From: Candidatus Poribacteria bacterium
Lineage (GTDB): Bacteria > Poribacteria > WGA-4E > WGA-3G
Direction of reading: 5' to 3'
Length of the DNA: 64,000 nt
Assembly: GCA_965116815.1 (NCBI GenBank)
Contig: OZ220722.1
Span: forward strand, 2,293,941 to 2,357,940
The translations under genes were made by a program, and so were the position numbers. Below are positions 10,735 through 51,466 of this stretch, piece by piece. The notes under the pieces are model-generated. The model had not been told where the DNA came from, did no database searches, and was given only the letters and a program-made list of their open reading frames with translations. The first letter of the stretch is position 1. Every line of letters begins with the position of its first letter.

Positions 10735-10796
10735 AAAAAAGGAGACGGTGTTCCTCCGCTTCCGCCACACCCGCGAAGTTTTAATGCGCGCATAGC

Positions 10797-11917: not shown

Positions 11918-11927
11918 AAAGAGGAAA

Positions 11928-12542: not shown

Positions 12543-12691
12543 GCGATGAAACTCTTGTAAAGTGTGCGAAAGTTATGAATGCCTCGCAGTGAGAGTAAAG
12601 TTGAAAGAGGCTTCTGGTGCAATAACAACTTTAGATCCCTTTGCAACTTCGTTGACTTTGCAACTTTCTTACTTTCCTCTTGGAAGGAAAA

Positions 12692-13648: not shown

Positions 13649-13799
13649 GTTTACCTTCCTTTGATGACGAACTACCGACTGCGGACTGCTGATAGCCAAG
13701 AAACAGAGATTGACAAACGGGTTTCCTGATGGTATAATTTCTTAACGAATGAGTCAATGCCGACTGAACGGGAACCGCAAAAAAACAGAAGGAAATACA

Positions 13800-15695: not shown

Positions 15696-15720
15696 TAGGC
15701 ACTCCGTGTGCCGTGACAAA

Positions 15721-18700
15721 ATGCGAGATATAGAAAACATCCTTAAAACCCGCATTGAAAACGATGAGGCGAACACCTTTGTCGTCATTGTACCGACCGA
15801 TTCTGCGCGTTTGAAACGTCAGCGCGAATTGGTCGGTTATCACCGAAACAGGGCAGTCGCCAATTTGCGTGTGTATAATATTGAAAATTTTGTGCAGCGG
15901 TTATATACGCAAGTACGCCCGTCGAGACAACATATTTCGCAAGGACTCCAAACCCTTTGGCTCCATGAAATCGCGAATAATACCGATGCCTACCGTTATG
16001 AGGTGTTCCGACCAAGCCAAGACATTTCGGTGCCGGATAGCACACTCTCCCTCATCGCAGACACAATTAATCGCCTCAGAGAACGCGGCGAGACACCCCA
16101 AAATATTATAAGAGATAATCCGACCCGGATTGACCTCGCTCACATTTATAACGATTATGAGGCAAAACTTGAGGATCGCTGGATCGATGAGCAGGGTAGG
16201 CACCTGTACCTTGCTAACAATTTCAATCCACGGTTTATGAGCAACGCATTTCCCCGAGTCAATCTTGTTGTTGTTGAAGGTTTCACTGTGCTTTCTCAGG
16301 CTGACATTAAAATCTTGACGCGCATCTCCGAGATGCCTAACTTAGAGATGTGGTTCCGCACCGACTGTGTTGAAGAAAATGAGAATCTCTATAAAAATAT
16401 TACCAAGCTCGTCTCGCAATTTAAAGCCGTAGACGTCCAGATTGATACAACCTATGCGCGTGAACCCAGTCTACATCAACGTTTTGCTGATAACCTGTTT
16501 CAATTGGATACTGCCAAGGCAACTTCGGTTCCAAATTCCGATACGGCGTTTCAGATTAGGTTATTGGAACCAGCCGACCGTTCGGCAGAGGTGGCGCAGA
16601 TCGCACACCATATCCAAAAACATGTCTCAGAAGGGGACTGCAAACTCAGTGACATCTGTGTTGCGTATTACAATGTGGGGTATTATCAACAGCGAATCGC
16701 CGAGACTTTTCCTGCTTACGGCATCCCTTATTCGCTTGTTGAAAGTATACCGCTAACAAAGTCAGAGGTCGTCAAAGCGATCTTTTCCCGCCTTTCATCG
16801 CGCCGAGTCCCACTAAACGATGTCTATTTTGGCACAGATTGCAAGCCAAAACTTGCGACAGAAAAGCCTGATGTTGAGCCTGCATCGCACACACGTCTAT
16901 TTCAACCTATCGAGTTTCAGGAATATGTTGACGACTTGCTTGCAGATGGTGCGGTTGTCAAGCATATTCTAAATCCTATGCTCGGACAGAACCGGGAAAT
17001 CGTTGAAGGAGAGGTTGAGGCGTATCGCCAATTCAATAGGATTGTCAAGGAGCTTTGCGAAGTATTAAAATCGGAAGGAAATGAGACTGATTTCCTTGAC
17101 AACTATATTGAAAAACTTTACTACATTGCAAGGCATACAAATTATCGAAATAGGGCGGCACCAAGCGGAGAGGTTGTGAGGATTGTTCAACTTGGTGAAC
17201 TCAGAAGTTTAGAATTTGATACCGTCTTTCTGGGTGATTTTGTAGAGGGTCGGTTCCCCGAAAATTATCGTCCAGATCCGTTGCTACCAGACACTCCTTA
17301 TCGTACTGAGGAGGAGCAACTGCACGATAATCGGTTCATGTTCTATCGAGTCCTCAAATCTTTTCGTAAGCGACTTTACCTGCTTGTACCACAACGTGAA
17401 CGTGAATCGGAACTAATCCCCTCTCCTTTTCTTGGGGAATTAAAAGCAATCGCCGACGTTCAGACGATTGACGTAGGGAATCCTGAACAAGGCAGTGTTC
17501 CCGGTTTTCTCAGCACATACGGCAACCACGTATGGACTACACCTACACCATCCAACCAAGAATTCCCAGATAACTTAGCAGACATGCGTTCTCTGATAGA
17601 CCATGTAATTGGGGTTGAAAAGAGCCGCGAGGAAACACATGAGCATTTGGCTTATGAAGGAATGTTAGCGGCTGAAATGCTTTCTGCCCAAAGCCAATTA
17701 CGGTTGGAAAATCGGCGGCGGAAAGTTTATTCCGTCACAGAATTGGAAACTTACGCGAAGTGTCCGTTTCAGTACTTTGTTGATAGTGTTTTGAGGTTCC
17801 ATATCGAAGAGGACGAAACGGAGGATGAGTTATCCAGCCTTGAAAGAGGATCATTGCTTCATGATGTTCTCCGCGCATTCTACAACAGCCGCCGCGAACA
17901 AGGATATCCGAGTATCGGACAATGTAGCGAGGAGGTTTTTGAGGACGCGAAAAAGCAATTAGCTGAAATATTAAATACCAAATCTGAGGAACACCGCAGC
18001 AAGCGCACTGAGACCCCTATCGGCGAGGGTAACCTCTTTTGGGAAATGGACATAGAGAAACTTCGCGTTGCTCTCCATAAGTGGCTTAAAGCGGAACGTA
18101 CCTATGGTTTACCCGTTATTCCGCGCTACTTTGAAGTTAACTTCGGTCAATCGGATGAACTGGCAGATTTGGAACTTGATTGTACGAAACCAATCCGCAT
18201 CGGTGACGTGCGGATGAAGGGCAGAATTGACCGCATTGATATTGGCAACGGTGCCTTTAATATTATCGACTATAAAACTGGCAGCTCCACAATTAGAATG
18301 CCGGAGATCCTTAATGGACGGAGTCTCCAACTCCCCATCTACCTTCAAATCACAGAGAAACTGCTGGAGGACCATGGACTAACAGGGCTAGACTCGGCGG
18401 CGGGACTCTATCATAAAATCAGGCTGGACCAATGTACAGTTGAACTCGGTATTGGCAAGGAGTCTTTAAACGAAGTCGCTTATAGTGCTTACAACGGCAC
18501 AGACTGGAGGTCGGTGGGTTCCAGAAGTGGTCAGCTGCTGGATGATGAACTGTTCGACGAACGGCTCGCCCGGACCCGTGGCTATGTTCAACAGTACGTT
18601 GACAGTATCTCTAAGGGGAAATTTCCGCTCATCACGCGCGTCAAAACCTTTTCGGTGTCTGAAGATGAATCTGAAGAAGATGATTTTATAGAGACTGATG

Positions 18701-19698: not shown

Positions 19699-19874
19699 TA
19701 GCGGAGGTCTGCTGAATTAAGTTTTTTTGACATCGTTCTTTAAATGTGTTATACTTAAAGAGGAAATATAATGCTTTCAGCATGGCCGTGAAACTTACTA
19801 AAACGGCGTGCGTAATTAACATCTAAATAGATTACCCAAAAAAGGCGTTGAAGGGGAGGAGTAAGTCGTCTGGG

Positions 19875-20125
19875 CTTGCGAGAGATGGAGACTCATCGGC
19901 TGAAAGGTCTCCTCAAGTTTCCACGACTGAAGGTCGCCCCGGAGCTGCTCATCTGAACAACTGTAGCAATAAGTAAGGTGAGTCGGTGTGATGCCCGTTA
20001 TCGCATCCCAAAGAGTGCTCTTTCTCGGTAAATGAAAATGAGAAAGGGAATTGGAGTGGTACCACGGTAAGGTCAGTGCAAATGTCCTTCTCGTCTCCAT
20101 GTTTGGAACGAGAAGGTTTTTTAAT
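19875..20125 (+). ncRNA. candidate T-box riboswitch leader (Leu specifier CUC?) with an intrinsic terminator, upstream of ilvB-ilvN-ilvC
   Basis: The boxes occur in the canonical order. AGAGA (AG box) is at about 19881. GCUGA (GNUGA box) is at about 19899. CUCA lies 3' of the distal hairpin at about 19912. CCGUUA (F box) is at about 19995. AAUUGGAGUGGUACCACGG, at about 20049-20067, matches the T-box consensus AAUUAGGGUGGUACCGCGG at 16 of 19 positions. The terminator CCTTCTCGT-loop-ACGAGAAGG + T6 is at about 20086-20122. Confidence 0.5.
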
Positions 20126-20175
20126 TTCAACGACTCCCGTAGGGACGATCCCTACAATTCATGAGGAAAATTGGC

Positions 20176-21852
20176 ATGGAACTTTCAGGAGCGCAAATCC
20201 TTGTTGACAGTCTCAAGCGGGAAGGTGTCGAATATATCTTCGGTGTGAACGGTGGCGCGGCGATGCCGATTTTCGATGCCCTCTACAGTGAGACCGAGGT
20301 TAAATTGATACCGATGCGGCATGAACAAGGGGCTTCCCACGCCGCTGATGGCTACGCACGTGCCACTGGGGATGTCGGCGTTGCGCTCGCAACTTCCGGT
20401 CCCGGCGCAACGAATCTTGTCACTGGCATCGCAACCGCTTATATGGATTCGATTCCGATGGTTGCGATTACTGGACAGGTTTTCACCCATTATATCGGTA
20501 GCGATGCCTTCCAAGAGTGTGATGTTATCGGCGTAACACGTCCGATCTGTAAACATAGTTACCTTATCACAAGTTGCGATGAGGTAGCAGATGTCGTCGC
20601 TGAAGCGTTTCACATCGCGAAGACCGGAAAACCCGGTCCCGTAATTATTGACATTGCCAAAGACGCGCAGATTCACGAAGCACTGTTTCAATATCCAGAA
20701 ACAGTTGACATCCGTAGTTACAAGCCGCAAGTTCATGGTGATCCAGCACAAATTGCAAAGGCAGCAGCACTGATTAAAGAAGCGAAACGCCCCATGCTTT
20801 ATGCCGGTGGTGGTGTTGTACTCGCCAATGCCAGTGAGGAGCTGCGGCAACTCACTCTCAAAACCCAGATTCCGATTACTGTTACATTAATGGGACTCGG
20901 CGCATTTCCCGAAACGCATCCTTTAGCGATGGAAATGCCCGGAATGCACGGTTCTTGTTGCGCTAATTACGCTTTTACCGACGCTGATCTCGTTATCGCT
21001 ATTGGCGCAAGGTTCGATGACCGCGTTACGGGTGATCTCAGTAAATTCGCACCGAACGCGAAGAAAATCCACATCGATATCGACGCGTCCTGTATTGGAA
21101 AAAATGTACCGGTGGATGTTCCGATCGTAGGTGATGCGAAGAGTGTTCTGACAGAACTGAATAAACAGGTTGAGACAGCAGACATTGACCCATGGCGCGA
21201 CCAGATTCAGGAATGGAAGCAGAAGTACCCGTTTGAGTATGAGCAGAAAGCCGATAAGGTAATGCCGCAATATGTCATTGAGCAGATTTATGAGCATTAC
21301 AGCGATGCCATTGTCGTTGCGGATGTCGGACAGCACCAGATGTGGGCGGCACAATACTTCAAATTCACCGAACCGCGGCAGTGGCTCAACTCCGGCGGTC
21401 TCGGCACGATGGGATTCAGCCTCCCCGCCGCAATCGGTGCGCAGCTCGGATGTCCGGACAAAACCGTTGTCAACATCAACGGAGACGGCTCCTATATCAT
21501 GACGATCCAAGAATTGGTGCCAGCGATTACGATGAAACTGCCGATTAAAGTTTTCATCATCAACAACATGTACCTGGGGATGGTGCGCCAGTGGCAGGAA
21601 TTGTTCCACGGCAAACGCTACTCTGCTGTCGATTACCACGATAATCCGGATTTCGCCTTGCTCGCACAGGCATTCGGTGCCACAGGGCTGCGGGTTGAAC
21701 ACCCAGACGAGGTCGAACCCGCATTACAGAAGGCGAAAGGGATTACCGATGGTCCTGTGGTTATTGATTTCATCGTTGATGAAGAGGAGAATGTGTTCCC
21801 AATGGTGCCAGCGGGTGCTGGACTTGGAGATGTTATCCGCGGGCTATCCTAA
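20176..21852 (+). CDS. ilvB: acetolactate synthase large subunit (biosynthetic, TPP/FAD-dependent)
   Basis: Full-length AHAS large subunit (GPGATNLVTGIATAYMDSIPMV, TPP-binding GDGSY...NN). The start is set at MELSGAQ behind a GAGG RBS. The ORF-track ATG at 20161 is an alternative. Confidence 0.92.
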   Translation: MELSGAQILVDSLKREGVEYIFGVNGGAAMPIFDALYSETEVKLIPMRHEQGASHAADGYARATGDVGVALATSGPGATNLVTGIATAYMDSIPMVAITGQVFTHYIGSDAFQECDVIGVTRPICKHSYLITSCDEVADVVAEAFHIAKTGKPGPVIIDIAKDAQIHEALFQYPETVDIRSYKPQVHGDPAQIAKAAALIKEAKRPMLYAGGGVVLANASEELRQLTLKTQIPITVTLMGLGAFPETHPLAMEMPGMHGSCCANYAFTDADLVIAIGARFDDRVTGDLSKFAPNAKKIHIDIDASCIGKNVPVDVPIVGDAKSVLTELNKQVETADIDPWRDQIQEWKQKYPFEYEQKADKVMPQYVIEQIYEHYSDAIVVADVGQHQMWAAQYFKFTEPRQWLNSGGLGTMGFSLPAAIGAQLGCPDKTVVNINGDGSYIMTIQELVPAITMKLPIKVFIINNMYLGMVRQWQELFHGKRYSAVDYHDNPDFALLAQAFGATGLRVEHPDEVEPALQKAKGITDGPVVIDFIVDEEENVFPMVPAGAGLGDVIRGLS

Positions 21853-31929: not shown

Positions 31930-33415
31930 AAACCGCCTTGCTTTAGCTGGGGGATACAGACTCGCTCTTGTGAATTAGACCAAAGCGTTTTTTGAAAAAA
32001 ACACTTGACATTTCTACGAAAATATGTTTTAATAGATGTATCACGTTGGCAGACATACCAAGCGTAACCGCAAGGTTACGTGTCTGCCTCCCCACTTGGT
32101 AGGGGTTAAAAGCGTGATACGTGAACATCCATGAAAACCTATAAACTGAAAATCCCTCACACTCAACAGTTAGACGCTCTGAATGCTGCGTCTGCGTCGG
32201 TTTGGAACGAGTGCCTGACTCTCAAATCCGTTTGGGATTATGCGCACGGCTATCGAAGCACCGGACGACTTGATCCACAATGTGAGTTGTGGATGGACAA
32301 GCAACTTTCCAAGTCCCAATCCCTACACTCACAGAGTATCCAAGCTGTCCGTGAGCGGTATTTCAAGAACAGAAAAGCCTATCGTGTGTTACGTAGGAAC
32401 GGCAATTCAACCGCCAAACCGCCGCATAAGTCTAAACGCTTTCAAACAACGACTTGGAAAAAGTCAGCCATCCGTTTCAAAGAAACATTGCTTGGTAAAG
32501 TCTTGATACTCTCTAATGGTAAAGGCACCCCTGCTTTAGAGATACCGCTTCCAAAGTTGTTTAACCTTTCTTTGACCCCTAATATTGTAATTGTGCACCT
32601 TGTCTATACTCGTGGACAATACGAACTTCATTTTGTCTATAACACCGAGACACCTGAAGTCTCTAAGGTTTCCGATGGCGTTGTGGGCGTTGATATTGGC
32701 GAGATACACCCGATTGTCAGCCATGACGGACATAACACACTGATTTTCAATGGGCGGTATATCCGAAGCCTATACCGATTGAGAAACAAGGTGATTGCCT
32801 CCTTTGGTAAAAAGATTGATAGGTGTAAACGCTATTCCAAACGTTGGTGGCATCTCGTGCGTAGGAAGTGGAAACGTCTTCAAAGGATTGACAATCAAAT
32901 CAAGGATGCGCTCCATCAACACACCACAAAGTTTGTGAAAAAATGTGGTGAGTCGGGTATAGGCACGATTGTCATTGGAGACCTAACGGGTATACGAGAC
33001 GATATCAACTATGGCAAACGTGCAAATCAGAAACTTCACCAGTGGGCTTTTGGTAAGGTTGCCGAGTTGATAACCTACAAAGCGAAATCTTTGGGTATCA
33101 AGGTTGACTTGATAGATGAGGCACATACCTCACAGACATGCCCAAAATGTGGCAACCGAAAGAAACCTACAAACCGAAACTACACCTGCAAATGCGGATT
33201 TAACTTTCACCGTGACGGTGTAGGTGCTATAAACATTCGCAAAAAGTATCTTGGACACTTCGGTGTCCCAGTAGTGGCGGACATGGATACCCAGGTTTCC
33301 ATGAAAATGACACCGCCCGTTGGATTTCGTCTCGAAGTCAAACGTTGCTCTGCCTGAGCAGAGAATGTTCCCACGAGGAACAAAAGAATCACCCTTGCTT
33401 TAGCTGGGTGAGTAT
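31930..33415 (+). mobile_element. IS200/IS605-family (IS1341-like) tnpB-only insertion sequence with direct-repeat-type ends
   Basis: The 16-mer CCTTGCTTTAGCTGGG occurs in direct orientation at about 31936 and about 33393, flanking tnpB. The LE carries a long hairpin GGCAGACAT...GTAACCGCAAGGTTAC...TGTCTGCC. The RE has the hairpin CTCTGCCTGAGCAGAG. No tnpA is present. Confidence 0.7.
32131..33357 (+). CDS. tnpB: TnpB (OrfB) RNA-guided endonuclease/transposase-accessory protein, RuvC-like plus Zn finger
   Basis: RuvC motifs VVGVDIGEIHP, IGDLTGIRDD and DEAHTSQTCPKCG, with the Zn finger CPKCGN...CKCG. Confidence 0.85.
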   Translation: MKTYKLKIPHTQQLDALNAASASVWNECLTLKSVWDYAHGYRSTGRLDPQCELWMDKQLSKSQSLHSQSIQAVRERYFKNRKAYRVLRRNGNSTAKPPHKSKRFQTTTWKKSAIRFKETLLGKVLILSNGKGTPALEIPLPKLFNLSLTPNIVIVHLVYTRGQYELHFVYNTETPEVSKVSDGVVGVDIGEIHPIVSHDGHNTLIFNGRYIRSLYRLRNKVIASFGKKIDRCKRYSKRWWHLVRRKWKRLQRIDNQIKDALHQHTTKFVKKCGESGIGTIVIGDLTGIRDDINYGKRANQKLHQWAFGKVAELITYKAKSLGIKVDLIDEAHTSQTCPKCGNRKKPTNRNYTCKCGFNFHRDGVGAINIRKKYLGHFGVPVVADMDTQVSMKMTPPVGFRLEVKRCSA

Positions 33416-41679: not shown

Positions 41680-42159
41680 ATGAAAACCGATAATAATGGC
41701 AATCAGTTACCGAAGGAGACAAAACTGGCGTACGCGTATTATAAACTGTACCGTGATATGCCGGCAGAGGAACGTTCTTTGCGGGTGCTATGTGAACGCG
41801 AAGTGAACGGTAAAAAAAGATCTATTTCGCTACTTGGGCGTTGGTCGAGTGAACACAATTGGCAAGAGCGAATTGCGGCTTATGACGCTGAAGCTGAGCG
41901 TGCGGCGTATCAAGAAAAATTAGCTCAGCGTCAGGCAGAGGTTGAGGCGTTTATAGACGAAGATATGGCGATCTCCATTAAATTCCAAAAGCTTTGTAAG
42001 ACGCGGCTTGAGGAATTGGACCAAGCCGGAAAGGATATGGATTGTAAAGAGTTGCGTCAATTGGCGTTGACGTATAAAGAATGTCGGGAGTGGCTAAAGA
42101 ACCTGATCGGGATTCTGGGGGAGGTAGAGGACGATGAAGCGGAAACGGCAGAAGATTAA
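41680..42159 (+). CDS. hypothetical protein (charged, helical; mobile-element-associated?)
   Basis: 159-aa ORF with a TATACT-type promoter upstream. Its 3' end overlaps the next ORF. Confidence 0.4.
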   Translation: MKTDNNGNQLPKETKLAYAYYKLYRDMPAEERSLRVLCEREVNGKKRSISLLGRWSSEHNWQERIAAYDAEAERAAYQEKLAQRQAEVEAFIDEDMAISIKFQKLCKTRLEELDQAGKDMDCKELRQLALTYKECREWLKNLIGILGEVEDDEAETAED

Positions 42160-43138
42160 TTTTCATGAGGTACGTTATCCGAAGCAGTTGAAATCAAAGG
42201 TAACTTTGATGTCTCCAGAACGACTTGGGGAATTGTATACAGAATGGGTCGATTTCGTTCGGCAGTTTACCCTGTGTGGTGGCGGCGAATGGTATATTGA
42301 TTTCTGTAATGACGAGTTTCGCGAATGGTTTGATAGTGAGGACTGTTGGTGGTCAAAGAAGGATAATATCCTCGCGTTTCGTCGGTGGTATGAAAAGAAC
42401 AAGGAGGTGTTGACATCTGCAGCATTTCAACACTATAAGGCGGAACAAGAAGCACAGAAAACAGCATTACATAAGCGGTTTTATTCCTTAGATCCTATCA
42501 AATACCATTATGAGGTTTCTCTTGGTTATATCGGTAGATGGTTGACTATTCTTGAGAGATGGTATAAAGAGGAGGCAGCGATATATAAACTGGCGCAGGC
42601 TTTGCTTTTGGAGGTTGCAATCACTGAATGCGTCTTTTTACGAGAGACAACATCTGTGCGGGGGAGTCAGGAATATAAAGAGTGGCTTCTGGTGGATGAG
42701 GCGAATGATCTGTTTCCACAGATGCGCAATAGAGGTCCACTGGACTGGAAATGGCAGGCATTGAAATCGAGTAATGATTGCTATCGGGGTGACATGGAAC
42801 AGGCAGGGTTGATTGTTTCGGTGATGCGCGCCCAGGTCTCCTCTGGAAATCTTGATGAAGAGGTTCTCGGTTTGATAGCGGCGGAGCATGCGCGGTTTTC
42901 ATCAAGTGATCTGGATTTTGAGTATCACCGGTCGTTAGCGATTGCGTCTTGTTTTTCTTCTGATTCTATTACAGTAAATCCATCGAGGTTGTTAGAAGGA
43001 ACAGAAAAATGTTTGCAAGCGTGGAATGTAAGAGATAGGAGCTCTGGATGGGATGCACTTGCGGTTCAAAAACAGGAAGAGTATCGGGCATTTTGGGAAA
43101 GGTGGAAGAACGTTCAAACAGAGCATGAGAATTTATAG
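42134..43138 (+). CDS. hypothetical protein (Trp/Cys-rich N-terminal region; unknown family)
   Basis: 334-aa ORF overlapping the upstream gene by about 26 nt (operon). Confidence 0.4.
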   Translation: MKRKRQKINFHEVRYPKQLKSKVTLMSPERLGELYTEWVDFVRQFTLCGGGEWYIDFCNDEFREWFDSEDCWWSKKDNILAFRRWYEKNKEVLTSAAFQHYKAEQEAQKTALHKRFYSLDPIKYHYEVSLGYIGRWLTILERWYKEEAAIYKLAQALLLEVAITECVFLRETTSVRGSQEYKEWLLVDEANDLFPQMRNRGPLDWKWQALKSSNDCYRGDMEQAGLIVSVMRAQVSSGNLDEEVLGLIAAEHARFSSSDLDFEYHRSLAIASCFSSDSITVNPSRLLEGTEKCLQAWNVRDRSSGWDALAVQKQEEYRAFWERWKNVQTEHENL

Positions 43139-43281
43139 TGTTGAAGGGGCATCAAGGTGCATTAGGTGGACATGTTTGTTGCCCGTTTCGTATGGACTGT
43201 CCAAGTTGTTTCTGTGAATCTTCAGTGTGCCTTTTGTTATTGTATAGGTTACGGAGAGTCCACGGCGTGTGCCTACTACTT

Positions 43282-43539
43282 TTAATAAGGATCCGTGATA
43301 GTCTCATTCACAGTCTCACGCCATGAGTCTTCAAATAGCATACGGAAAGACATTGTTTTGTTGTTGGTTGAAATGATCTCCATCGTGCCGTGTTGTGTAG
43401 CGTTTCGATATAATTTTTCTAACGATTTGATAAGTTTCTGTTTGTAGGTGGTGTCGGTGTTACCTTCGAGGTGTTGTCCTTTGGTCTCGAAACCAACGCC
43501 CTTCGTTTCATATCTGAATAATGATTTCCTCATGGTCAA
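43282..43539 (-). CDS. HicA-like toxin (YcfA family), probable
   Basis: The N-terminus RKSLFRYETKGVGFETKGQHL resembles E. coli HicA KQSEFRRWLESQGV..GSNHL. It overlaps the upstream HicB-like gene. Confidence 0.45.
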   Translation of the reverse strand: MTMRKSLFRYETKGVGFETKGQHLEGNTDTTYKQKLIKSLEKLYRNATQHGTMEIISTNNKTMSFRMLFEDSWRETVNETITDPY

Positions 43540-43729
43540 CTTTCGCAGCCTTGATAGCCTCTTTACTATTGTAATCTATCATTTCGAGAAGCATAATTCG
43601 TAGTGCTTCAAGCAATTCGTCCTTCGTCCGTTCTTGACCATTTACGCCGGGAATTTCCTGTATCCAACCCATCCACCAGCCTTCGTCCTGTTGGATAACA
43701 GCGGTATAAGTTTGTGTCAGCGGTTCCAT
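43508..43729 (-). CDS. HicB-like antitoxin (UPF0150 family)
   Basis: YTAVIQQDEGWWMGWIQEIPGVNGQERTKDELLEALR is the UPF0150/HicB N-domain signature. Confidence 0.55.
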   Translation of the reverse strand: MEPLTQTYTAVIQQDEGWWMGWIQEIPGVNGQERTKDELLEALRIMLLEMIDYNSKEAIKAAKVDHEEIIIQI

Positions 43730-43904
43730 CCTCCTTTAAGAGGGTACAACAACTTTAGACTTAAGAATCAAGCCACCCTTTTCATCTTTTATGAAATTTC
43801 CGTGTGTAGTCGGTGAGGAAGTCTTGTTTCTCTTGCCGTTTGATATCCTCACAGAGTGCGCGTAAATCGTACTGAAAAGAAGCAGCCCATTCGTCGCGAA
43901 TCTG

Positions 43905-44180
43905 GTGAATTTCCTCAATACCGACCAGTATCGTGGATACAATGAGATCGGTAAACAGATGAAGCACGAAACGATGAATCGAAGTGAGCAGTGGGAGCCC
44001 AATGGTATCCATACCAACACAATCGAAGGCTTCTGGTCTTTCGTCAAACGGGCGTGGTATGGATCACATCACCACTATTCAACAGGATACACGCCCTTGT
44101 ATCTCGCAGAGGCAGGCTATAAGTATAACTACCGAGAAACCAACATCTTTGAGAAGTTTCTCAAGCAAAGCATGCAGTGA
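43905..44180 (+). pseudogene. IS1595-family (ISXO2-like) transposase C-terminal fragment
   Basis: TDQYRGYNEIG...H..MN....W..NGIHTNTIEGFWSFVKR matches the IS1595 DDE C-terminal region. The upstream two-thirds are absent. Confidence 0.6.
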
Positions 44181-44320
44181 AGAACGGATACAAGTGGAAA
44201 CTCAAAAAGGAAAATTACAACTTTCTCAAGTCCAAAACGACTAATTCCGATAACGCAAGTTGCTACCTTTTTATGCATATAGCACTCCGCTGGAGTGCAA
44301 TCGCACAAATACGCTATTTT

Positions 44321-44530
44321 CTATAGATATATCACCCCGCTGGGGTGGGGAAAAGACAAAAAACCTTTCCGAAGTGGGCAAAATCTGTTAGTAGCAACTT
44401 GGATTAAATTATGACGATGTTTCCAAGAACGTCGCAAATCCAGAACAAGCATGTCTTCAAGGGTTTCCTTTTCAGGTATCCACTCGCCATTTTCAACACA
44501 GTTCGGTTCATAGAAGAATCCGTTTTTCAT
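44321..44530 (-). CDS. small hypothetical protein (good AAGGAG RBS; C-terminal part may be spurious)
   Basis: MKNGFFYEPNCVENGEWIPEKETLEDMLVLDL... behind a strong RBS. The ORF runs into a hairpin-rich region. Confidence 0.3.
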   Translation of the reverse strand: MKNGFFYEPNCVENGEWIPEKETLEDMLVLDLRRSWKHRHNLIQVATNRFCPLRKGFLSFPHPSGVIYL

Positions 44531-44750
44531 TAATCATACTCCTTGTAAAAAATGCCCGGTAGGTGCGGTTTTGCGGCGTACACGCCCAAATGCGACCTGC
44601 ATACTAACCGCACCGGATTTTAGACACAAACTTTGCATATCCCAAAATCTATTATTCAGATTCAGTAAGAGTATCCGATTCATCGGCATATCCCATAAAT
44701 TCTCGCATAAATGTATCGATTGTCTATTTTGTTAAGTTCAGAAATTAATC

Positions 44751-45620
44751 CTATTTCTTTGCCTCTGTTGTGAAATCAATGATGCGTATAACCCCCCAGT
44801 CGGCAGGTTCCCAATTCCGTGCCGCATCTGCCCATCGAAGTTGTACTCTATAGCGCTCTCCATGCCGTAACCAAAGGCCTTCACCCGGTAATCTCAAAAG
44901 GATTATACGCTTACCATCTATCAACATTGTCCATTTCATATCAATCTGGCGCGTGTTATTCCAGAGTTTCACGTTCGCGCTATCAATATCCTCGTCAAAG
45001 TCAAACACAAAACGTTCTGTGTCTTTAGGGACATTTATGTCCCCATGTCCGACACTACTTCTGATCATTTGGGGGGCTCTATTGTCTCCTTTCTTTGTTG
45101 TGAATGTAATTAGAATGGTGCGCTTATTTCCCTCAGTGTCTTCGACATCCCCGGATATTTCATATTGTCCGTCGGTTTTTAAATTAATCACGTTTCCAAG
45201 GGGTGTGAGAACAACTTTCTTGCCATTAACAATCCGTTTCCAACGAAGACTCTGTCTAAAGTTGTCGTGGTTTTTGTGGATTTGGATATTCGATTTTGCA
45301 ACATCTTCATCGAAAGTCAAGGTGATGCTATTCAAACGTATATGCACGTTTCTTTCACCGTCCGAGATGCTGCTTTCTACGAGTTTCGGACCAAAGATAT
45401 CAAAAACAGGTTCAGGTTCAGGTTCATCTACAATAGGTTCTATAATAGGAACTGCCGGATCTGGTTGTGGGACTAAAGGTTGGGATTGTGCTTCTGTATC
45501 AGGTTCCTCTATCACAACAGGTGTCGCAAAAATGCTTTGTGTGCCTTCGTGATCCCCGCTATCGACAGAACAGCCGATCACACAGGCAATGAGTATAGAC
45601 ATTAAGAGTGTTTTTATCAT
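44751..45620 (-). CDS. hypothetical lipoprotein (Ig-like/beta-rich?)
   Basis: Lipobox LIACVIGCS. The Pro/Glu-rich linker suggests a surface location. Confidence 0.45.
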   Translation of the reverse strand: MIKTLLMSILIACVIGCSVDSGDHEGTQSIFATPVVIEEPDTEAQSQPLVPQPDPAVPIIEPIVDEPEPEPVFDIFGPKLVESSISDGERNVHIRLNSITLTFDEDVAKSNIQIHKNHDNFRQSLRWKRIVNGKKVVLTPLGNVINLKTDGQYEISGDVEDTEGNKRTILITFTTKKGDNRAPQMIRSSVGHGDINVPKDTERFVFDFDEDIDSANVKLWNNTRQIDMKWTMLIDGKRIILLRLPGEGLWLRHGERYRVQLRWADAARNWEPADWGVIRIIDFTTEAKK

Positions 45621-45631
45621 CGTTTCCTCTG

Positions 45632-46309
45632 TTAGTGAAAATTGAGCGCAATGTTATAGACAATCTCAGAACTCTCGAAAGAGAATTCAATAGCACCGAT
45701 GAGTGTGATTGTCGGGGACATCTCTATTTCAATTCCGGCTTCTCCAGAGAATAGGTTAGCTGTGTCATCAATAAGAAGCTCACGAGTGGTTGATACGTTA
45801 CGCCAGATATTTGAATAGAAGACACCAAAATAAGGTCTGAGAAAGTTGTTAGGTTCATGTATGATACCGAGACCACCTGCGAGTATCGCATTTACTGAAT
45901 GCTGTGGTAGTCCGCTGCTATGGATTTGGTGATAGTGTGCCCGAAGCCCAGCTCTAAAAAAGTATTGTAATGTTGGCATGTTTCCTAATGGTCCTATGTG
46001 GGTCAATCGTAGTTCAGCAGACGGTGATGGTGGTATATCTAACGGTTCTTTACTGTCAATATGGATGAACCCGACGCTTGGGATTAGTGATACCATTGAA
46101 CTGTGCGTAAAAGCATAATCAAGGCTTATTCTGATGGTTTCTGCTCTAAAAACTTGGTTTTCGCGCCTGCGTTTTGGGAATTCGTAACGCTGTAATCCCA
46201 ATCCGAGTGCCCCTTTTCCTTCAGGTAATGCCTTTAAACGTGTCTGGGCTTCTGATGCCGGTATTAAGAAAAAGATAAAAATTAGGGTGAATATGCAATA
46301 TTTTATCAT
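45632..46309 (-). CDS. putative outer-membrane beta-barrel protein
   Basis: Signal peptide, alternating amphipathic strands and a C-terminal aromatic residue (..NFH). Confidence 0.4.
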   Translation of the reverse strand: MIKYCIFTLIFIFFLIPASEAQTRLKALPEGKGALGLGLQRYEFPKRRRENQVFRAETIRISLDYAFTHSSMVSLIPSVGFIHIDSKEPLDIPPSPSAELRLTHIGPLGNMPTLQYFFRAGLRAHYHQIHSSGLPQHSVNAILAGGLGIIHEPNNFLRPYFGVFYSNIWRNVSTTRELLIDDTANLFSGEAGIEIEMSPTITLIGAIEFSFESSEIVYNIALNFH

Positions 46310-46632
46310 TCAATTATCATCCTTTGGCATTTGGTATTCCTCTTAAAAAAGTGCAAAAGTGCAAAGTGGTGGACAGGGTATCCACGTCTTTGTGTTAGGT
46401 TAGTTCCAATACATACTCTCTTCTTTTTGTCGACGGAAAATTTCACTTGGATATGCCGCTGAATTTCAGAAGATGTAACATATCGTGTTTTCGGGACAGG
46501 TGATGTTTTGGGGCGTGATGGATTTCCTAATGGTTCCGGAAAATATTTAGAATCATTAGGTTTACCGCTCGCGTCCAGAATATCCTCTTGATATGATACA
46601 TAACCCATGAAAATCCCCCTTGCCGAGTTCAA
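46306..46632 (-). CDS. hypothetical protein
   Basis: 108-aa ORF whose start overlaps the OMP-like gene's stop. Confidence 0.3.
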   Translation of the reverse strand: MNSARGIFMGYVSYQEDILDASGKPNDSKYFPEPLGNPSRPKTSPVPKTRYVTSSEIQRHIQVKFSVDKKKRVCIGTNLTQRRGYPVHHFALLHFFKRNTKCQRMIIE

Positions 46633-46824
46633 ATTGAATTCGGATCAATAACAAACTGAAGGTTTGACCACTTTCTGTTTTCGATAGTCTATTTGGATTT
46701 ACCAGTCCAGTCCTTTATCCCCCTACCATGGTGGAAAGGTGGCAAAACGGAGAGAGTCTCCGATTCATGGTAGTGCCACCTTAGAACTGGTTACAATACT
46801 ATGACGTGAGTTCAACTTAAAAGT

Positions 46825-47421
46825 TTAGAGAACATCATACGTAGGAGCGTTCTCTCCACTGTACTTCAGATTAGCACCTTTTTTGTACCACCCGACATCG
46901 TCTTCGAGCCAATCATCAATTTCATCATCATGTAAAGGCACTTCACGTAAAAGTGCAGATCTAGCAACTTTCTCATAAACGAGCACGCTCTCATGCGTAG
47001 TGGTGAAACCTCGATTGTCACGACTTCCTTTTAGATTAAGAACTGCTGCAAGGCATACAATAAACGTATCAGCCCCAAATATTTCGTCCATGATCATTCG
47101 CAAATGATGCTGTTCGTGATGGTCAATAGAAACGAAAATAACGCCATCATCGGAAAGCAATTCGCGCAGCAAATGCAGGCGCGGCCACATCATGCAAAGC
47201 CATTTGTCATGGAGTTCAAGGTCTTCACCATCAACCGGACTGTTTTGAGCAAACCACGCTTGCATCAGCGGGCTATTCACTCGGTCATTGTACACCCAAG
47301 CCTGACTGCCTGTATTATATGGCGGATCAATGTAGATGCACTTGATCTTGCCAGCGTATTTTGGGAGAAGTGCCTTTAGTGCATGTAGGTTGTCGCCGTG
47401 GATAATGAGGTTATCATTCAA
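46825..47421 (-). pseudogene. N6-adenine/N4-cytosine DNA methyltransferase fragment (Type III Mod / beta-class-like), C-terminally truncated
   Basis: DNLHALKAL...IKCIYIDPPYNTG (motif IV DPPY) and HESVLVYEK. It stops after 198 aa, with no TRD or motif I. It begins with TTG directly after a poly-C tract. Confidence 0.7.
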
Positions 47422-47433
47422 CGGAGATTTTTC

Positions 47434-47446
47434 GGGGGGGGGGGGG
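47434..47446. repeat. homopolymeric G13 tract (C13 on the coding strand), 12 nt 5' of the Mod fragment start
   Basis: Seen directly in the sequence (ttcGGGGGGGGGGGGGtaaac). An upstream ATG at about 47546 would read through it into the Mod frame with 12 or 15 Cs rather than 13. Confidence 0.8.
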
Positions 47447-47563
47447 TAAACACGAATTAAGTGATTTTTCTGTGTCTATCTGTAGGGTGCGGACGGGGAC
47501 GGTGAGGTGGTGTCCGTATATGAATTGTTTGCCTTTGAAGTCGAGCGTGGGCATAGAGACTCC

Positions 47564-48412
47564 TTAAAAAATCTTATTCATATCAACAGGAAAACCTGCA
47601 TTTTTGATTTCTTGACCGAGTTTCAATTTCCAGTCTCCGCTATCCATAGGCACGTAGATTACGCCATCAATATCTGAGGGTTTCTCTATTTTTCCTTTGA
47701 AGAGCGGACATACTCGTTCACGACCCAGTTTTCCCATGAAATAACCGAGTTCAAAAACAACGTTCTGACGGGCTCTCGGTTTGCTTTCGTTCTCAATTTT
47801 ATCTTTTAAGGCACCAATATCGTCAGGTGTGAGTAGAACGATTGCAAATCCTGCATTACCGGCGTATTTTTCAAGCTTCTCAATGATCGTTAGTCCACTA
47901 CTGGGCTATTCGTGAAGGATAGTTACCTTTAAGCCCAATCTCTCTACAAACCTCGCAACGGTTTCTTTAACCCCATCATCGCGTCCGTGTACGATGAATA
48001 CTTCGTTACCCGAGATGAGCGGAAATGTGTCTGATGATTCATCGTACAGTTCAAGTTGATCCTGAATTCCCATTAGGTAATTGATATCCCTGTCTACATT
48101 TTCTCTGTATCTAATCAAATCCTTTGAAAACTCGACTCTTTCCTCCCTATTTGGAGACGAAACTATTCCCATAGGGTAAAAAATGCAGGCTCTTTCGTAT
48201 TCTTCTGCAACTAACGTCCCATCAAATAGGTGCAACAAAAGGTTTTTATTATGCCGTGACCAGTTTCCATGATCATTTCGAGCACGACTATATTCATCTC
48301 GTGCATCAATTTGTCTATCGCGGAGTTGTTGCCCTTTATCAATTTGCTCTTGTATTTTCTTCTCGGTTCCCTCTCTACTCACAAGCAATTTTGGAAGCGT
48401 TTTATCTTTCAT
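47564..48412 (-). pseudogene. TIR-like (COG4271/DUF2321-type, Cap12/PycTIR-like) protein with a novel ~130-aa N-terminal domain, interrupted by one in-frame TAG
   Basis: The ORF-track piece 47906-48412 ends ...[31 protein letters not shown]. The same frame continues [29 protein letters not shown]...RARQNVVFELGYFMGKLGRERV... to a TAA at about 47564. The paralog has CAG (Q) where this gene has TAG. Confidence 0.6.
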
Positions 48413-48861
48413 AGTTTCTCCTCAATAGGCAGTCCAGCGTTTTGCATGCCTTGACTGAGTTTCAGTTTCCAATCATCTGCACCATCCATGGGTACATAGA
48501 CTACGTTAGGAATATATGATGGTAATTCAACACCTTCTTTGTAGAGGATACACACTCGTTTATCGCCTAACCCCCCGAGGAGATAACCGAGCTCAAAGAT
48601 AACGTTTTGGCGGGCCCTAGGTTTCCGTTGTCCTGTAGCTTTTGAGGACCCAACATCGTCCGGTGTCAACAAGACAATTGCGAAACCCGCTTCATCTGCC
48701 TGTTCTTCAAACTTATCAATGATTGTTCGTCCCTTACTGGGTTGTTCGTCAAGAACGGTTGGCTTTAAACCCAACGTCTCTACAAATTTGGAGACGGCTG
48801 TTTTGGCTTCATCATCATGCCCATGGGCGATAAACACTTTCGATTGAGTTTTCACATTCAT
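48409..48861 (-). CDS. stand-alone TIR-like domain protein (COG4271/DUF2321-type)
   Basis: [20 protein letters not shown]...[18 protein letters not shown]...[10 protein letters not shown]...[32 protein letters not shown]. Its stop overlaps the next gene's ATG (ATGA). Confidence 0.65.
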
Positions 48862-49100
48862 GATCTTTCCCCCATTTTCACCCTGACGTGCTGGAGGCGG
48901 AAAAACGCCTATTCATAATCAATCAAAACACAACTCTGCACTAAATTATAGCACTAATTCATCCATAGTGTCAAATCCCATTTTGGACAGGAGGTGTAAA
49001 TATTTTGTCAAAAAGGAAACCGAGGACTATACACCTATCACACCATAGGGGCATAGACGCGCGTTCTAAAATCGGGGTTAGAAACCCTTTCTACAAGAAG

Positions 49101-49251
49101 GTTGTCAGTGAGTAAGTCGGGAAGCGGAGTTCCCTCCTACCAAGAGGGTTATCAGTTGTCGGTAAGTGTCGGGAAGCGGAGTTCCCTCCTACATTGGCTT
49201 TCAGCAGTCACCGGAGTTCCTGCGGAGTCGGGAATCGGAGTTCCCTCCTAC
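49101..49251. repeat. short tandem array: the 25-nt unit GTCGGGAAGCGGAGTTCCCTCCTAC occurs three times (third copy carries a T substitution at unit position 9) with 27- and 34-nt spacers that themselves carry GTTGTCAGT / GTTATCAGTTGTCGG motifs
   Basis: Seen directly. The unit has an internal GGGAA...TTCCC palindrome. The spacers resemble each other and the MITE-family core, so this is a tandem repeat rather than CRISPR. Confidence 0.7.
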
Positions 49252-49483
49252 AGCTCAAAATTGTAAAATTCGCCATATTTACACTTTCTTTGGATACGAG
49301 CCTCCGCCCTGTTACGGAGATTTGAAACCCTATTTCTATAAAAATCGTTTTATTAATGGGGATAGTGTATTAAAAATAGTTAGGATTTACGCAGCGCCCT
49401 TTGCTGGCGAGGTTTGAAACCTCGCCAGCGGCGTGCGGGCCATAGGTACTCATCAGTTTGCGTCAGTTTGCGTAAAGAAAATT

Positions 49484-51466
49484 ATGTTATCTTTTGAGCA
49501 ACTCATCCAGAATGTAACAGACACAACACAACCGAGCATTGTGCGCAGTAGTGCTATTGCAAGTCTTGTCGCACAAGGCAACTCACAAGGGATAAGCCCT
49601 CTAATTGAGTGCCTTGCTGATTCGGATTCGGTGATACGGCGCGAAGCCGCGAAAGCACTTGCACAGCTGGACGCAACTCGTGCAGCGGAGCCACTACTTG
49701 AAGCATTACAAGTGGAGTCGAATGACCTTACGCTTTGGGCAATGCTTGAAGCTGTTGGTGAGTTGGCCACACCTGATGCCCTTCCTCTGCTCGAATCGTT
49801 CTCCACTGCTGGTTCTATGCTCACGCGGATAGAGGTGAAAAAAAGTATCGCCCGCATTCAGACTCGTTATGTTGACGGAAGTCCCTCAGTATCTCCAAAG
49901 ACATTTGAACCTGAGCCGCATGATGAACAGATGGATGCAAATGAACCGCCAACAGTGAGTTTTGAAGACTCACAGGTCGCGCCGGAATCGGAAGTGGTAG
50001 AACTGGGTTCAGATCCTTCACCCGCTCATAGTACGCAACGGCTTCAGACAGACACCTCCGAGGATCCGCTTATAGAGCAGGTAGAGGATGTAACAACAGA
50101 TGAGGTATCAGCAGCTGAATCTGGTGAGGAACAGTCTAACCTACACGAAGCGACTGTGGTGGCACCAGAAGAGATAACTGATGCAACGAATTATACACAG
50201 CTCACTGAGGAACCGATTGAGGCTATGGGTGAAGCGGAATCTGTAGAAGAGGGAATCGATATCACAGATCCGGTACATCCTGAAGAACCTACAGAGCAGG
50301 TAGCAACTGATACGGAATCGGCACAACGAGAAAAAGCGGACAAGGAAATAGACGATTTGGCAGAGTCCATCGCGCAATCCACTCGTCTCGCGGGTTCTTC
50401 TGTTAACCTTCCTGTATTAGCACCTAATGCTGCCACTGTGCCGTATCATCCAAAAGGAACCGCACTTGAAGAACCACCCCGTGAGAATTTTTTCCTCACG
50501 CTGATACACCCAGGCAGGTACCTCTCTAAACAGTGGCTATACCGAACGCGTGTTTATCTGCTCTTATGGGCGGCTCTCATTATCGCTACGATCGGTTTTA
50601 CCCAATATCAGAAGTATAGTAGCGTAGAGTTAAGTCCGCTATCTCGCATTGGACTTTCTGACGATGAACTACCGGCGTTGGTAAAACGCTCCTTGGCAGA
50701 AGGTGATTTCTACATCCAAGAGGGGTATTATAGGAAAGCCATTAATTCGTATGAACTGAGTAAGAATCTTGACATCTTACCGATTAGTTTCTATAGAAAA
50801 CTCGGATTTGCATACTTCAAGGAAGGTCAGTATGCACTCGCGGCTGAAGCATACGAAATGTTTTTAGAGGCGAGAGAGGACGACAATCCGGACGTATTTG
50901 CCGCTGAAGCCTCGCTCGTTGGTGTATATCCACTGACTTCGATAGAAAAGGGAACGGCACGCGACTATGAAACCTACAATATCCTCGGTATAGCATACAT
51001 GAAACTCGGACGTGTATTAGAAGCACAACGCGCTTACGAACAGGCGATACGTCTTGCGCCTAAATATGGCGAGGCATACAATAACCTTGCGCGCCTCTAT
51101 GCCGATAATTATCCGCACGTCTTAGCTGCAGACTCGCAAGTTTTACCGTTGTCTACAGTTTCCGTTTTGCAAACTGTCCCCAAACTGAGACTCGCTGAGG
51201 CGTTAGCCTATACAGCGGTGACACTGAACCCAGATGTCGCCGCCTATCACGATACCCTTGGCTGGGTTTTATCAAGACGGGGTCAGGTAAACAAGGCAAT
51301 AAAAACTTTAGAACGTGCTATTGATCTGCAAAGCGATGCCGTTGAACCGCACTATCATCTCGCACAGGTTGCGCTCAAAGCCAACGAACGGAAGAAGGCA
51401 GCGCAAGCCATCCGAAATGTGTTCAAACTTAACCCTGCTTTTGTTCCTCTCAACGCGGAGCAGTAG
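49484..51466 (+). CDS. membrane-anchored protein with N-terminal HEAT (PBS-lyase-type) repeats, an acidic linker, one TM helix and C-terminal TPR repeats
   Basis: SDSVIRREAAKALAQL HEAT-like repeats, TM VYLLLWAALIIATIGF, and C-terminal TPR-like A..YE.A..L.P...A..N units. Confidence 0.5.
   Translation: MLSFEQLIQNVTDTTQPSIVRSSAIASLVAQGNSQGISPLIECLADSDSVIRREAAKALAQLDATRAAEPLLEALQVESNDLTLWAMLEAVGELATPDALPLLESFSTAGSMLTRIEVKKSIARIQTRYVDGSPSVSPKTFEPEPHDEQMDANEPPTVSFEDSQVAPESEVVELGSDPSPAHSTQRLQTDTSEDPLIEQVEDVTTDEVSAAESGEEQSNLHEATVVAPEEITDATNYTQLTEEPIEAMGEAESVEEGIDITDPVHPEEPTEQVATDTESAQREKADKEIDDLAESIAQSTRLAGSSVNLPVLAPNAATVPYHPKGTALEEPPRENFFLTLIHPGRYLSKQWLYRTRVYLLLWAALIIATIGFTQYQKYSSVELSPLSRIGLSDDELPALVKRSLAEGDFYIQEGYYRKAINSYELSKNLDILPISFYRKLGFAYFKEGQYALAAEAYEMFLEAREDDNPDVFAAEASLVGVYPLTSIEKGTARDYETYNILGIAYMKLGRVLEAQRAYEQAIRLAPKYGEAYNNLARLYADNYPHVLAADSQVLPLSTVSVLQTVPKLRLAEALAYTAVTLNPDVAAYHDTLGWVLSRRGQVNKAIKTLERAIDLQSDAVEPHYHLAQVALKANERKKAAQAIRNVFKLNPAFVPLNAEQ

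Follow-up and report, generated by a model that had tools for sequence, protein, structure and literature searches.

Three tightly packed genes on the minus strand of a Candidatus Poribacteria genome raise the question of whether they form a defense system and, if so, of which kind and in what state. The genes lie at 46825-48861 of a 64,000-nucleotide (nt) stretch of contig OZ220722.1 (GenBank assembly GCA_965116815.1), which is referred to here, at its full length, as the window. An original prediction, made from the DNA sequence, described an operon remnant with two tandem TIR-like genes and a truncated Mod-like methyltransferase (MTase), and proposed a decayed or novel defense module. Our analysis confirms the three minus-strand genes at these positions and finds that the remnant runs on downstream to a Res fragment, so that the defense-operon remnant spans approximately 43282-48974. 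We consider it probable that the locus is a decayed two-layer operon, in which a Type III restriction-modification (R-M) system was combined with an autonomous TIR NADase that would be activated by oligomerization, and that it is largely dead in this genome. Of the two options in the original proposal, decay stands, as this is a decaying copy, whereas novelty does not, as the arrangement is intact in relatives. The pattern is not a product of chance, since the hidden Markov model (HMM) matches have E-values of 1e-16 to 1e-78 and the gene order of the locus recurs in relatives.

A TIR-only gene and a disrupted PDC-S35-type gene

The first two genes of the operon (Table 1) carry TIR domains of the family PF10137 (CAP12-PCTIR_TIR), which bears out their earlier description as two tandem TIR-like genes of the COG4271 or Cap12/PycTIR type. 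Residues 8-126 of gene 1 match positions 1-118 of the 119 in the model (E 9.6e-37, 126.1 bits), and residues 138-257 of gene 2 match it with an E-value of 2.6e-41 and 140.8 bits, both well placed above the Pfam gathering threshold of 24.7 bits. The two TIR domains are 59% identical, in keeping with the roughly 60% first estimated, and the two genes overlap by 4 nt (ATGA).

Gene 2 has in addition an N-terminal region of about 130 residues that has no match in Pfam. When the internal stop codon is read as glutamine, residues 19-281 of gene 2 align with positions 6-262 of the 264 in the PADLOC model PDC-S35 (PDLC05005; E 1.6e-73), and the protein matches PHROG 16442 end to end (E 7.6e-59), which is the PHROG that the PDC-S35-type family also forms. 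The statement that this gene combination belongs to no named system therefore cannot be kept for the fusion of the N-terminal domain (N-domain) with a TIR domain. Gene 1 covers only the C-terminal half of PDC-S35 (positions 115-258 of 264), which makes it a TIR-only paralog and not a full member of the family.

Gene 2 is not an intact open reading frame (ORF), because it is interrupted near the start of the TIR domain by the amber codon that had been pointed out in the original prediction. A glutamine occupies this position in the family alignment (45 members), which corresponds to a single CAG-to-TAG transition. Recoding of TAG was considered and rejected: TAG is an ordinary stop in this genome, where it terminates 15 of the 44 long ORFs of the window, and the TAG of gene 2 is therefore a true nonsense codon. 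The same TAG is found in a Logan assembly (contig L083, run ERR14375724) that is 100% identical to the window over 1729 nt. The public '282-aa' product of that contig (protein P0269, L083 842-1690) has glutamine at codon 169 where the contig DNA has TAG; the gene caller introduced this glutamine by applying an alternative genetic code to the short contig, an artifact that masks the pseudogene state.

The interruption has left little trace on the rest of the gene. Past the stop, the ratio of nonsynonymous to synonymous substitution rates (dN/dS) is 0.13-0.18 against intact orthologs, compared with 0.14 between those orthologs, and gene 2 retains every residue that is invariant in the family. 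Because dN/dS past the stop matches that of intact ortholog pairs, we take the nonsense mutation to be very recent. Gene 1 is thus left as the sole intact gene of the operon in this genome; its dN/dS relative to the ortholog in the syntenic locus L002 (see below) is 0.31.

Predicted fold and active site of the TIR proteins

AlphaFold models of an ortholog of gene 2 (P0001; 84% identical, mean predicted local distance difference test (pLDDT) score 80.6) and of the window's own 168-amino-acid (aa) ORF (pLDDT 84.8) give a consistent view of the N-domain. It is modeled as an antiparallel four-helix bundle, with helices at residues 13-32, 38-62, 67-77 and 91-118 and block-mean pLDDT values that mostly exceed 90 and reach their minimum in the third helix, and it is followed by the alpha/beta domain of the TIR. 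Fold searches with the N-domain returned generic bundles only, and no recognizable ligand-binding fold. The idea that the N-domain might serve as a ligand sensor is not borne out by this plain predicted bundle. A phmmer search of the full library with the N-domain alone gave 323 cluster representatives; among the 87 longer ones, 65 carry PF10137, five TIR_2, two GGDEF, and one each Hypoth_Ymh, EAD7 and SieB. By its domain partners, the four-helix bundle looks to be a portable module that is joined mostly to conflict-type effector domains.

The TIR domain itself has as its nearest Foldseek neighbors TIR-STING (9LMQ, 7UN8), and then SPARTA TIR-APAZ and SARM1, with a probability of 1.00 for the top matches. 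In the TIR-STING protein SfSTING, R78 and N80 bind NAD+, E84 is catalytic, and D110 of the partner protomer completes the active site only in the filament (PMC9402430). In a profile alignment, RARQNVVFELG of gene 2 pairs with RDNVVFEFG of SfSTING, and the motif RARQNV(V/I)FELG is found in both TIR genes of the window. R215, N217, E221 and PSD(247) are invariant in the family alignment and present in gene 2, and PSD(247) aligns, by alignment only, with PTD(110) of SfSTING, which holds the trans-acting aspartate. We conclude from these alignments that the catalytic constellation of TIR-STING is in all likelihood conserved in gene 2. Gene 1 keeps the Arg, Asn and Glu of the RxNVxFE motif and has a tyrosine (PSY) where the trans-acting aspartate aligns, again as judged by alignment only; orthologs of gene 1 have glycine or asparagine at this position.

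The Type III R-M genes are in ruins

The third gene had been read as a Mod-like MTase. This assignment holds in that the gene is a fragment of a Type III Mod, and has to be revised in that its true start is at 47554 and the gene is frameshifted at a run of 13 C. The ATG at 47554 opens a 46-codon ORF that runs into the 13-C run, and removal of one C joins both mod frames. The gap of 9 nt after the gene 2 stop, together with a GGAG, suggests that mod is translationally coupled to gene 2. Residues 1-32 of the window Mod are 91% identical to the Mod of the relative L001, and the fused Mod matches positions 1-200 of the 654 in PADLOC model MTase_III (PDLC03640) with an E-value of 1.4e-78. The MTase ORF at 46825-47421 matches PF01555 (N6_N4 MTase; E 6e-16) at profile positions 1-111 of 221 only. 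When the intact 547-aa Mod of L001 was compared with the window by tblastn, only its residues 1-32 and 40-190 were detected. The C-terminal 55-60% or so of Mod, with the S-adenosylmethionine-binding motifs, is absent, and the target-recognition domain is incomplete.

The 13-C run is the only G/C homopolymer of at least 7 nt in the 64 kb. Its length differs among relatives: the window has 13 C, L027 and L002 have 11 C each, and L001, L034 and L003 lack the tract. The tracts of 13 and 11 C are all out of frame relative to 12 C. Judged by these sequences, the tract behaves as a hypermutable one and is probably phase-variable.

Of the res gene, a stub is left that is 80% identical to the 875-aa Res of L027 (tblastn, E 7e-27), which is itself a full-length match to PADLOC model REase_III (PDLC03653; E 2e-230). 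A tblastn search of the other frames and of the whole window for the rest of Mod and Res found only the fragments listed in Table 1. The R-M part of the locus is the ruin of an ordinary Type III system, and the R-M layer is irreversibly lost in this genome.

In place of the rest of mod there is an insert of 3.1 kb. The transposase fragment that it contains (43905-44180) lies near the low-coordinate end of the insert, at a distance of about 160 nt, and because of this position an insertion sequence (IS) was probably involved in the rearrangement that replaced the C-terminal half of mod.

Beyond the insert, a small ORF has been kept that shares 93% DNA identity with its counterpart in L002 and 86% with that in L027. 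In L027 (13649-13837) it sits between the Mod that is frameshifted at 11 C and an intact Res, and in L002 (3223-3435) and L085 (11691-11903) it sits between remnants of Mod and Res. The ORF, of 70-73 aa, is thus kept in the clade even where Mod and Res are both stubs. It has no match in Pfam, NCBIfam, PADLOC or PHROG, and its best match among PDB sequences is a weak one, to the UPF0150/HicB-like protein TTHA1013 (E 0.02).

Relatives of the locus and the order of decay

The closest relatives of the locus are found in metagenome-assembled genomes (MAGs) of Candidatus Poribacteria and Latescibacterota, where the intact arrangement consists of a variable number of TIR-only genes, a PDC-S35 gene, mod, the small ORF and res. 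In L001, a PDC-S35-like gene is followed after a 10-nt gap by the 547-aa Mod, and a ThsB_TIR gene adjoins the locus. L003 has two TIR-only genes, a full-length PDC-S35 gene and Mod. L027 has three TIR-like copies, the third of which is apparently degraded, and then the frameshifted Mod, the small ORF and the 875-aa Res. In L050 and L007 a full-length PDC-S35 gene and Mod are separated from Res by intervening genes, and in L034 the order is Mod, three TIR-only genes, intervening genes and Res. Res is intact in L027, L034, L007 and L050; Mod is not intact in every relative that bears Res. Tandem TIR-only paralogs recur in six Poribacteria loci (L002, L003, L027, L034, L041 and L048).

Two relatives, L002 and L085 (a 21-kb scaffold), share synteny with the window on either side of the locus, with a HEAT/TPR gene and an S8 peptidase on one flank and an ABC substrate-binding protein on the other. 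Both have three intact TIR genes, and their Mod and Res are reduced to stubs. The breakpoint in Res falls at residue 796 in L002 and at residue 808 in the window. Because these breakpoints are nearly equal, Res was probably lost before L002 and the window split, and Mod probably decayed later and differently in each. A further loss in the window is that of the first TIR-only gene, where about 960 nt of L002 correspond to 76 nt between 49063 and 48987. TIR genes that are left without R-M have dN/dS values of 0.19-0.31, which indicates purifying selection.

The interval between Mod and Res is an insertion hotspot. It contains type IV Cas7/Cas5 genes and an IS630-like transposase in L034, and an LmuA-like STAND protein with a PIN protein in L050. 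The interval from the TIR genes to res in L034 (11588-16342, on a Poribacteria chromosome) encodes a protein of 736 aa with no recognized identity, followed by Cas7 (Csf2, E 2e-48) and Cas5 (Csf3, E 9e-18), so that this Type III R-M operon appears to enclose a type IV effector module.

Distribution of PDC-S35 homologs

PDC-S35 homologs number more than 7000, and most of them are intact and 272-305 aa long. In a neighborhood sample of 82 loci (80 loci from the genome collection plus L001 and L002), a Type III-like Mod lies beside the TIR gene in 17, and about 80% have no adjacent Mod. The order Mod, PDC-S35 and ResIII-type gene, sometimes with a PD-T4-4_A-like ATPase after PDC-S35, is found in Binatia, Nitrospirales, Latescibacterota, Rhodothermales, Caldilineaceae, Spirochaetia and proteobacterial MAGs. 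The TIR genes of L056 and L060, the two that were tested, are full-length PDC-S35 matches (positions 5-262 of 264). A PADLOC scan of the two neighbors on either side of 37 full-length homologs found five Type III MTases and five further TIR genes among 135 neighbors, and no other single family dominated. Because MTases make up only five of these 135 neighbors, most members of the family can be regarded as stand-alone genes.

Beside these operons, we noted an ABC/AAA_15 ATPase resembling PD-T4-4_A in L056 (10473-11906; E 5.5e-110, L056 being the one locus scanned), with similar genes in L074, L037 and L028. The ATPase adjoins PDC-S35 within the Mod-to-Res operons, coming after it in L056, L074 and L028 and before it in L037. 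An ORF of 180 aa that follows the PD-T4-4_A-like ATPase has no match in PADLOC.

Relatives of the TIR domain are also found in 1174 plasmid records, and the Prokaryotic Genome Annotation Pipeline (PGAP) gives the TIR proteins the generic name 'nucleotide-binding protein'. An Escherichia coli homolog, WP_000235578.1, is full-length with 34% identity and can be found in 37 of the 5426 complete E. coli genomes. In L089 (NZ_AP022222.1) it lies in an island at 7467-18179, directly after an integrase and a helix-turn-helix regulator. The island also encodes a primase, a single-stranded DNA-binding protein, capsid, head-decoration and small terminase proteins and an Abi-family protein, and is inserted in the major capsid gene of a prophage; no R-M genes lie near the homolog in the island. 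From this gene content, the island looks like a capsid-forming phage satellite. Together with the TIR genes of relatives in intact Type III R-M operons, this location agrees with the defense context that was first proposed for the TIR genes.

A two-layer operon and its alternatives

We propose that the ancestral operon of this Poribacteria-like lineage began with a promoter and one to three TIR-only genes, which were followed by a PDC-S35-type gene, a Type III mod, the small ORF and a Type III res. In the first layer, the Type III R-M enzyme would cut unmodified DNA. In the second, the TIR proteins would act as abortive-infection effectors that hydrolyze NAD+ when forced to oligomerize, with a composite site as in TIR-STING, where the catalytic glutamate of one protomer is completed by the aspartate of its neighbor. 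The four-helix bundle would likely be an oligomerization or trigger-binding module, which would replace the cyclic-nucleotide sensors of Cap12 and PycTIR. The TIR genes would probably form an autonomous system within the R-M operon and not an obligate R-M subunit, because they are kept under purifying selection after R-M loss and occur mostly without R-M.

Several points weigh against this proposal. Our literature search found no functional study of PDC-S35, PF10137, COG4271 or WP_000235578.1, so it is from homology that we infer the NADase activity and anti-phage function of PDC-S35 members. Whether gene 1 would be active on its own is doubtful, because, by alignment, it has no counterpart of the trans-acting aspartate, and the N-domain is absent from it. 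Both the TAG and the poly-C length were read from assemblies, and the Logan contig may derive from the same sample. Finally, the recurrent same-strand order Mod, PDC-S35, Res in several phyla could reflect functional coupling and not mere embedding.

This last point leads to a guard model of the PrrC kind, in which Mod/Res would hold the TIR proteins inactive and a phage anti-restriction factor would set off NAD+ depletion, so that the TIR proteins would not be autonomous. Such an arrangement has a precedent in PrrC, whose gene lies within the Type I R-M locus EcoprrI, and the model draws on the tight same-strand linkage of gene 2 and mod here and in L001, on the position of PDC-S35 between MTase_III and a ResIII/REase_III-like gene in at least seven other lineages, and on the sampled loci in which a Type III-like Mod adjoins the TIR gene. 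We nevertheless consider it unlikely, given the large majority of sampled homologs that have no adjacent Mod, the purifying selection on three intact TIR genes in L002 and L085 after decay of Mod and Res, and the E. coli homolog in its satellite-like island with no R-M nearby. Furthermore, the Mod-to-Res interval also hosts the unrelated Cas7/Cas5, LmuA-like STAND plus PIN, and PD-T4-4_A-like ATPase genes, in keeping with a generic insertion hotspot. A more specific form, to which we give a rather low probability, is that PDC-S35 proteins and their TIR-only hetero-oligomer partners serve Type III R-M as a dedicated accessory layer, in which they would be NAD+-depleting guards that read the state of Mod/Res. 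If true, this would explain the repeated placement of PDC-S35 between mod and res, or immediately before mod, in many phyla, and the putative trans-acting aspartate that is present in gene 2 and missing from gene 1 would reflect an obligate hetero-filament. The locus could also be switched off and not dead, if the poly-C run were a reversible phase-OFF state and the TAG a minority polymorphism or an error, with some cells expressing full-length PDC-S35. The tract lengths (13, 11, 11), each one slip from in-frame, and the lack of relaxed selection past the TAG, with all invariant residues kept, would fit this reading, to which we likewise assign only a small chance: even in frame, Mod would be without its C-terminal half and Res would be a 66-codon stub, a separate Logan assembly has the same TAG, and TAG is a normal stop in this genome.

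The remaining explanations concern what the TIR proteins do. In an array like that of Thoeris, the TIR-only paralogs would sense infection and make an NAD-derived signal, and PDC-S35 or an unlinked protein would be the effector. The tandem TIR-only paralogs of the six Poribacteria loci resemble Thoeris loci with several ThsB genes, and a ThsB_TIR gene lies beside the L001 locus. However, the TIR domains of the window are of PF10137, the effector type of Cap12 and PycTIR, and not of PF08937 as in ThsB, there is no ThsA-like, SLOG, Macro, SAVED or CARF effector in the operon or the window, and the four-helix bundle has no recognizable ligand-binding fold, which makes an array of this type very improbable. 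A role outside defense, with the TIR-like proteins as nucleoside or nucleotide N-glycosidases or transferases that serve nucleotide or DNA-modification metabolism together with the MTase, would find some backing in the PGAP label and in a weak structural similarity to the 2'-deoxyribosyltransferase 7o62 (Foldseek E 0.03-0.05). We regard this as extremely improbable, as TIR NADases score far better (E 1e-5), the residues of the SfSTING NAD+ site are conserved, and the genes are found in R-M operons, plasmids and a phage-satellite-like island and not in nucleotide-metabolism operons.

Relation to known systems

The PDC models of PADLOC go back to the 'guilt-by-embedding' study of Payne et al. 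(2024; bioRxiv 10.1101/2024.01.29.577857), which took genes lying within BREX, DISARM and Type I R-M loci as its starting point and describes the resulting 145 candidates as untested. Gene 2 matches PDLC05005 over essentially its whole length, N-domain included, and its relatives are embedded in R-M operons as the founders of the PDC set were. It differs in that the host operon is a Type III R-M system, a TIR-only paralog precedes it, and it has a nonsense codon.

Cap12 (TIR-STING, SfSTING; 7UN8, 9LMQ) shares the PF10137 subfamily with the two TIR genes, is the closest solved structure by profile and by fold, and has in common with gene 2 the R/N/E motif and, as judged by alignment, the trans-acting aspartate. 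In contrast to Cap12 and its CBASS systems, there is here no STING or SAVED domain, no CD-NTase and no cyclic-dinucleotide sensor, and the accessory domain is N-terminal, so that the domain order is reversed; the NCBIfam Cap12 equivalog models score 27-40 bits against a cut-off of 450. PycTIR (8JSJ) also has a PF10137 TIR domain (profile match E 1.7e-4; PADLOC PycTIR E 8e-12), whereas neither a domain that binds cyclic nucleoside monophosphates nor, in the operon or window, a PycC cyclase of the Pycsar systems is found here. As first noted from the sequence, the locus has no signaling partner of these kinds: neither the operon genes nor the 41 long window ORFs scanned with PADLOC include a cyclase, CD-NTase or SAVED protein. 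Thoeris differs in that genes 1 and 2 have no PF08937 TIR and the window has no SIR2, SLOG or Macro effector.

For the R-M part, the nearest comparison is with the phase-variable Type III systems ('phasevarions') of Haemophilus, Neisseria and Helicobacter, in which mod carries simple-sequence repeats. The locus shares with them the N-terminus of a Type III Mod with DPPY, a homopolymer in the 5' coding region whose length varies between strains, and a full-length REase_III in relatives. It differs in that mod is truncated and res almost gone, and in that the host is an uncultured Poribacteria-like bacterium and not a host-adapted pathogen. With PrrC and EcoprrI, the locus has in common an abortive-infection-type effector gene nested on the same strand of an R-M operon; the chemistry differs (TIR versus anticodon nuclease), and close relatives have kept the TIR genes without R-M.

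Two aspects are somewhat new. One is the order conserved in Poribacteria, in which TIR-only paralogs precede PDC-S35 and a Type III mod with a poly-C tract, and the other is that PDC-S35 recurs more widely within Type III operons. Both build on the published principle that defense genes are embedded in R-M operons, and found no new kind of system. For this genome the module carries little weight, being mostly dead, and the locus documents a stepwise erosion of defense in a symbiont-like lineage, with Res lost first, Mod next and the TIR gene last. At the level of the family, an untested candidate, PDC-S35, is tied to Type III R-M operons in many phyla, with a conserved TIR-STING-like active site and a tractable homolog in E. 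coli. If PDC-S35 is validated, it would be a TIR effector without any nucleotide-sensor domain, and the question would be how a bare four-helix bundle triggers TIR assembly.

Features of the locus and its flanks

The features of the locus are collected in Table 1.

Table 1. Features of the operon remnant and its immediate surroundings, in the direction of transcription of the operon (window coordinates)
Feature	Coordinates	Strand	Description
Tandem repeat, intergenic	49094-49251	+	~52-nt unit, three 26-nt core copies, core GTCGGGAAGCGGAGTTCCCTCCTAC
Sigma-70-type promoter, candidate	48945-48974	-	TTGACA, 18 nt, TG-TATAAT; 12 of 12 consensus matches
Gene 1	48409-48861	-	Intact, TIR-only, 150 aa; CAP12/PycTIR TIR family, PF10137
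Gene 2	47564-48412	-	282 codons; N-terminal four-helix bundle (predicted) ~1-125, TIR ~136-282; one nonsense codon
In-frame TAG, codon 169 of gene 2	47906-47908	-	Reads HE*PSSG; consensus Q in ILHEQPS
mod, 5' end	47447-47554	-	Starts MPTLDFKGKQFIYGHHLTVP...; ATG 47554, GGAG, 9-nt gap after gene 2 stop
13-C run	47434-47446	-	13 G on the plus strand; within mod, out of frame; 12 or 15 C restores the frame
Mod catalytic N-terminal part	46825-47433	-	DPPY region and start of target-recognition domain; ends early
Insert, 3.1 kb	43742-46824		In place of rest of mod; no counterpart in L002, L027
108-aa ORF in insert	46306-46632		No family assigned
Beta-barrel outer membrane protein-like gene in insert	45632-46309		
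Big_5 lipoprotein in insert	44751-45620		
IS1595/ISXO2-like transposase fragment	43905-44180	+	5'-truncated; PF12762 positions 80-153 of 153
Small ORF	43508-43729	-	73 aa; between Mod and Res in relatives
Res C-terminal remnant	43294-43491	-	Residues ~808-873 (66 codons); tblastn

The sigma-70 consensus site lies about 84 nt upstream of gene 1 and is the sole site with 12 of 12 matches in 43000-49500. By consensus match only, it is the likely promoter of the operon.

The tandem repeat sits between the divergent gene 1 and HEAT/TPR gene, and within its core is an inverted repeat, GGGAA/TTCCC. Part of the tandem repeat is conserved in L002, and the Logan contig L083 terminates within 2 nt of the last repeat copy. 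The core has one exact match in the metagenome collection, no extra copies were seen in the window or in the related loci that were compared, and Rfam gives no match at the repeat. A CRISPR array was rejected as an explanation, with three copies within a tandem unit of about 52 nt and 'spacers' that resemble one another. A dispersed repetitive extragenic palindromic (REP) element was also rejected, on the copy counts just given. The repeat had been counted as a sign of a defense island, on which it is uninformative.

The wider window is likewise not a defense island, as the genes around the locus are housekeeping genes: serine hydroxymethyltransferase, a proton-pumping pyrophosphatase (H+-PPase), ilv genes, methionyl-tRNA synthetase, the ABC substrate-binding protein and the S8 peptidase. 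PADLOC matches in the window consist of a TnpB-like protein (Cas12f models), a subtilase model, a weak match to a Csx1 model and one match to PDC-S15; the subtilase match is probably the S8 peptidase.

Next to the low-coordinate end of the remnant, two plus-strand ORFs at 41680-43138 have no counterpart in the syntenic locus L002. The first, of 159 aa, matches a PHROG small terminase subunit (E 2.5e-15), and the second, of 334 aa, has no match in any library searched. They may be a phage or satellite remnant beside the defense-locus remnant. Farther away, a TnpB/Cas12f-like ORF of 408 aa (32131-33357) matches PDB sequences of Cas12f and ISDra2 TnpB with E-values of 1e-12 to 4e-8, and the PADLOC Cas12f model matches one window ORF with an E-value of 1e-44. 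A T-box leader at 19839-20101 (Rfam RF00230, 112.8 bits) lies upstream of a 563-aa ORF (20161-21852), which is probably the class I methionyl-tRNA synthetase of the window; PF09334 matched one window ORF, a match that is not individually assigned.

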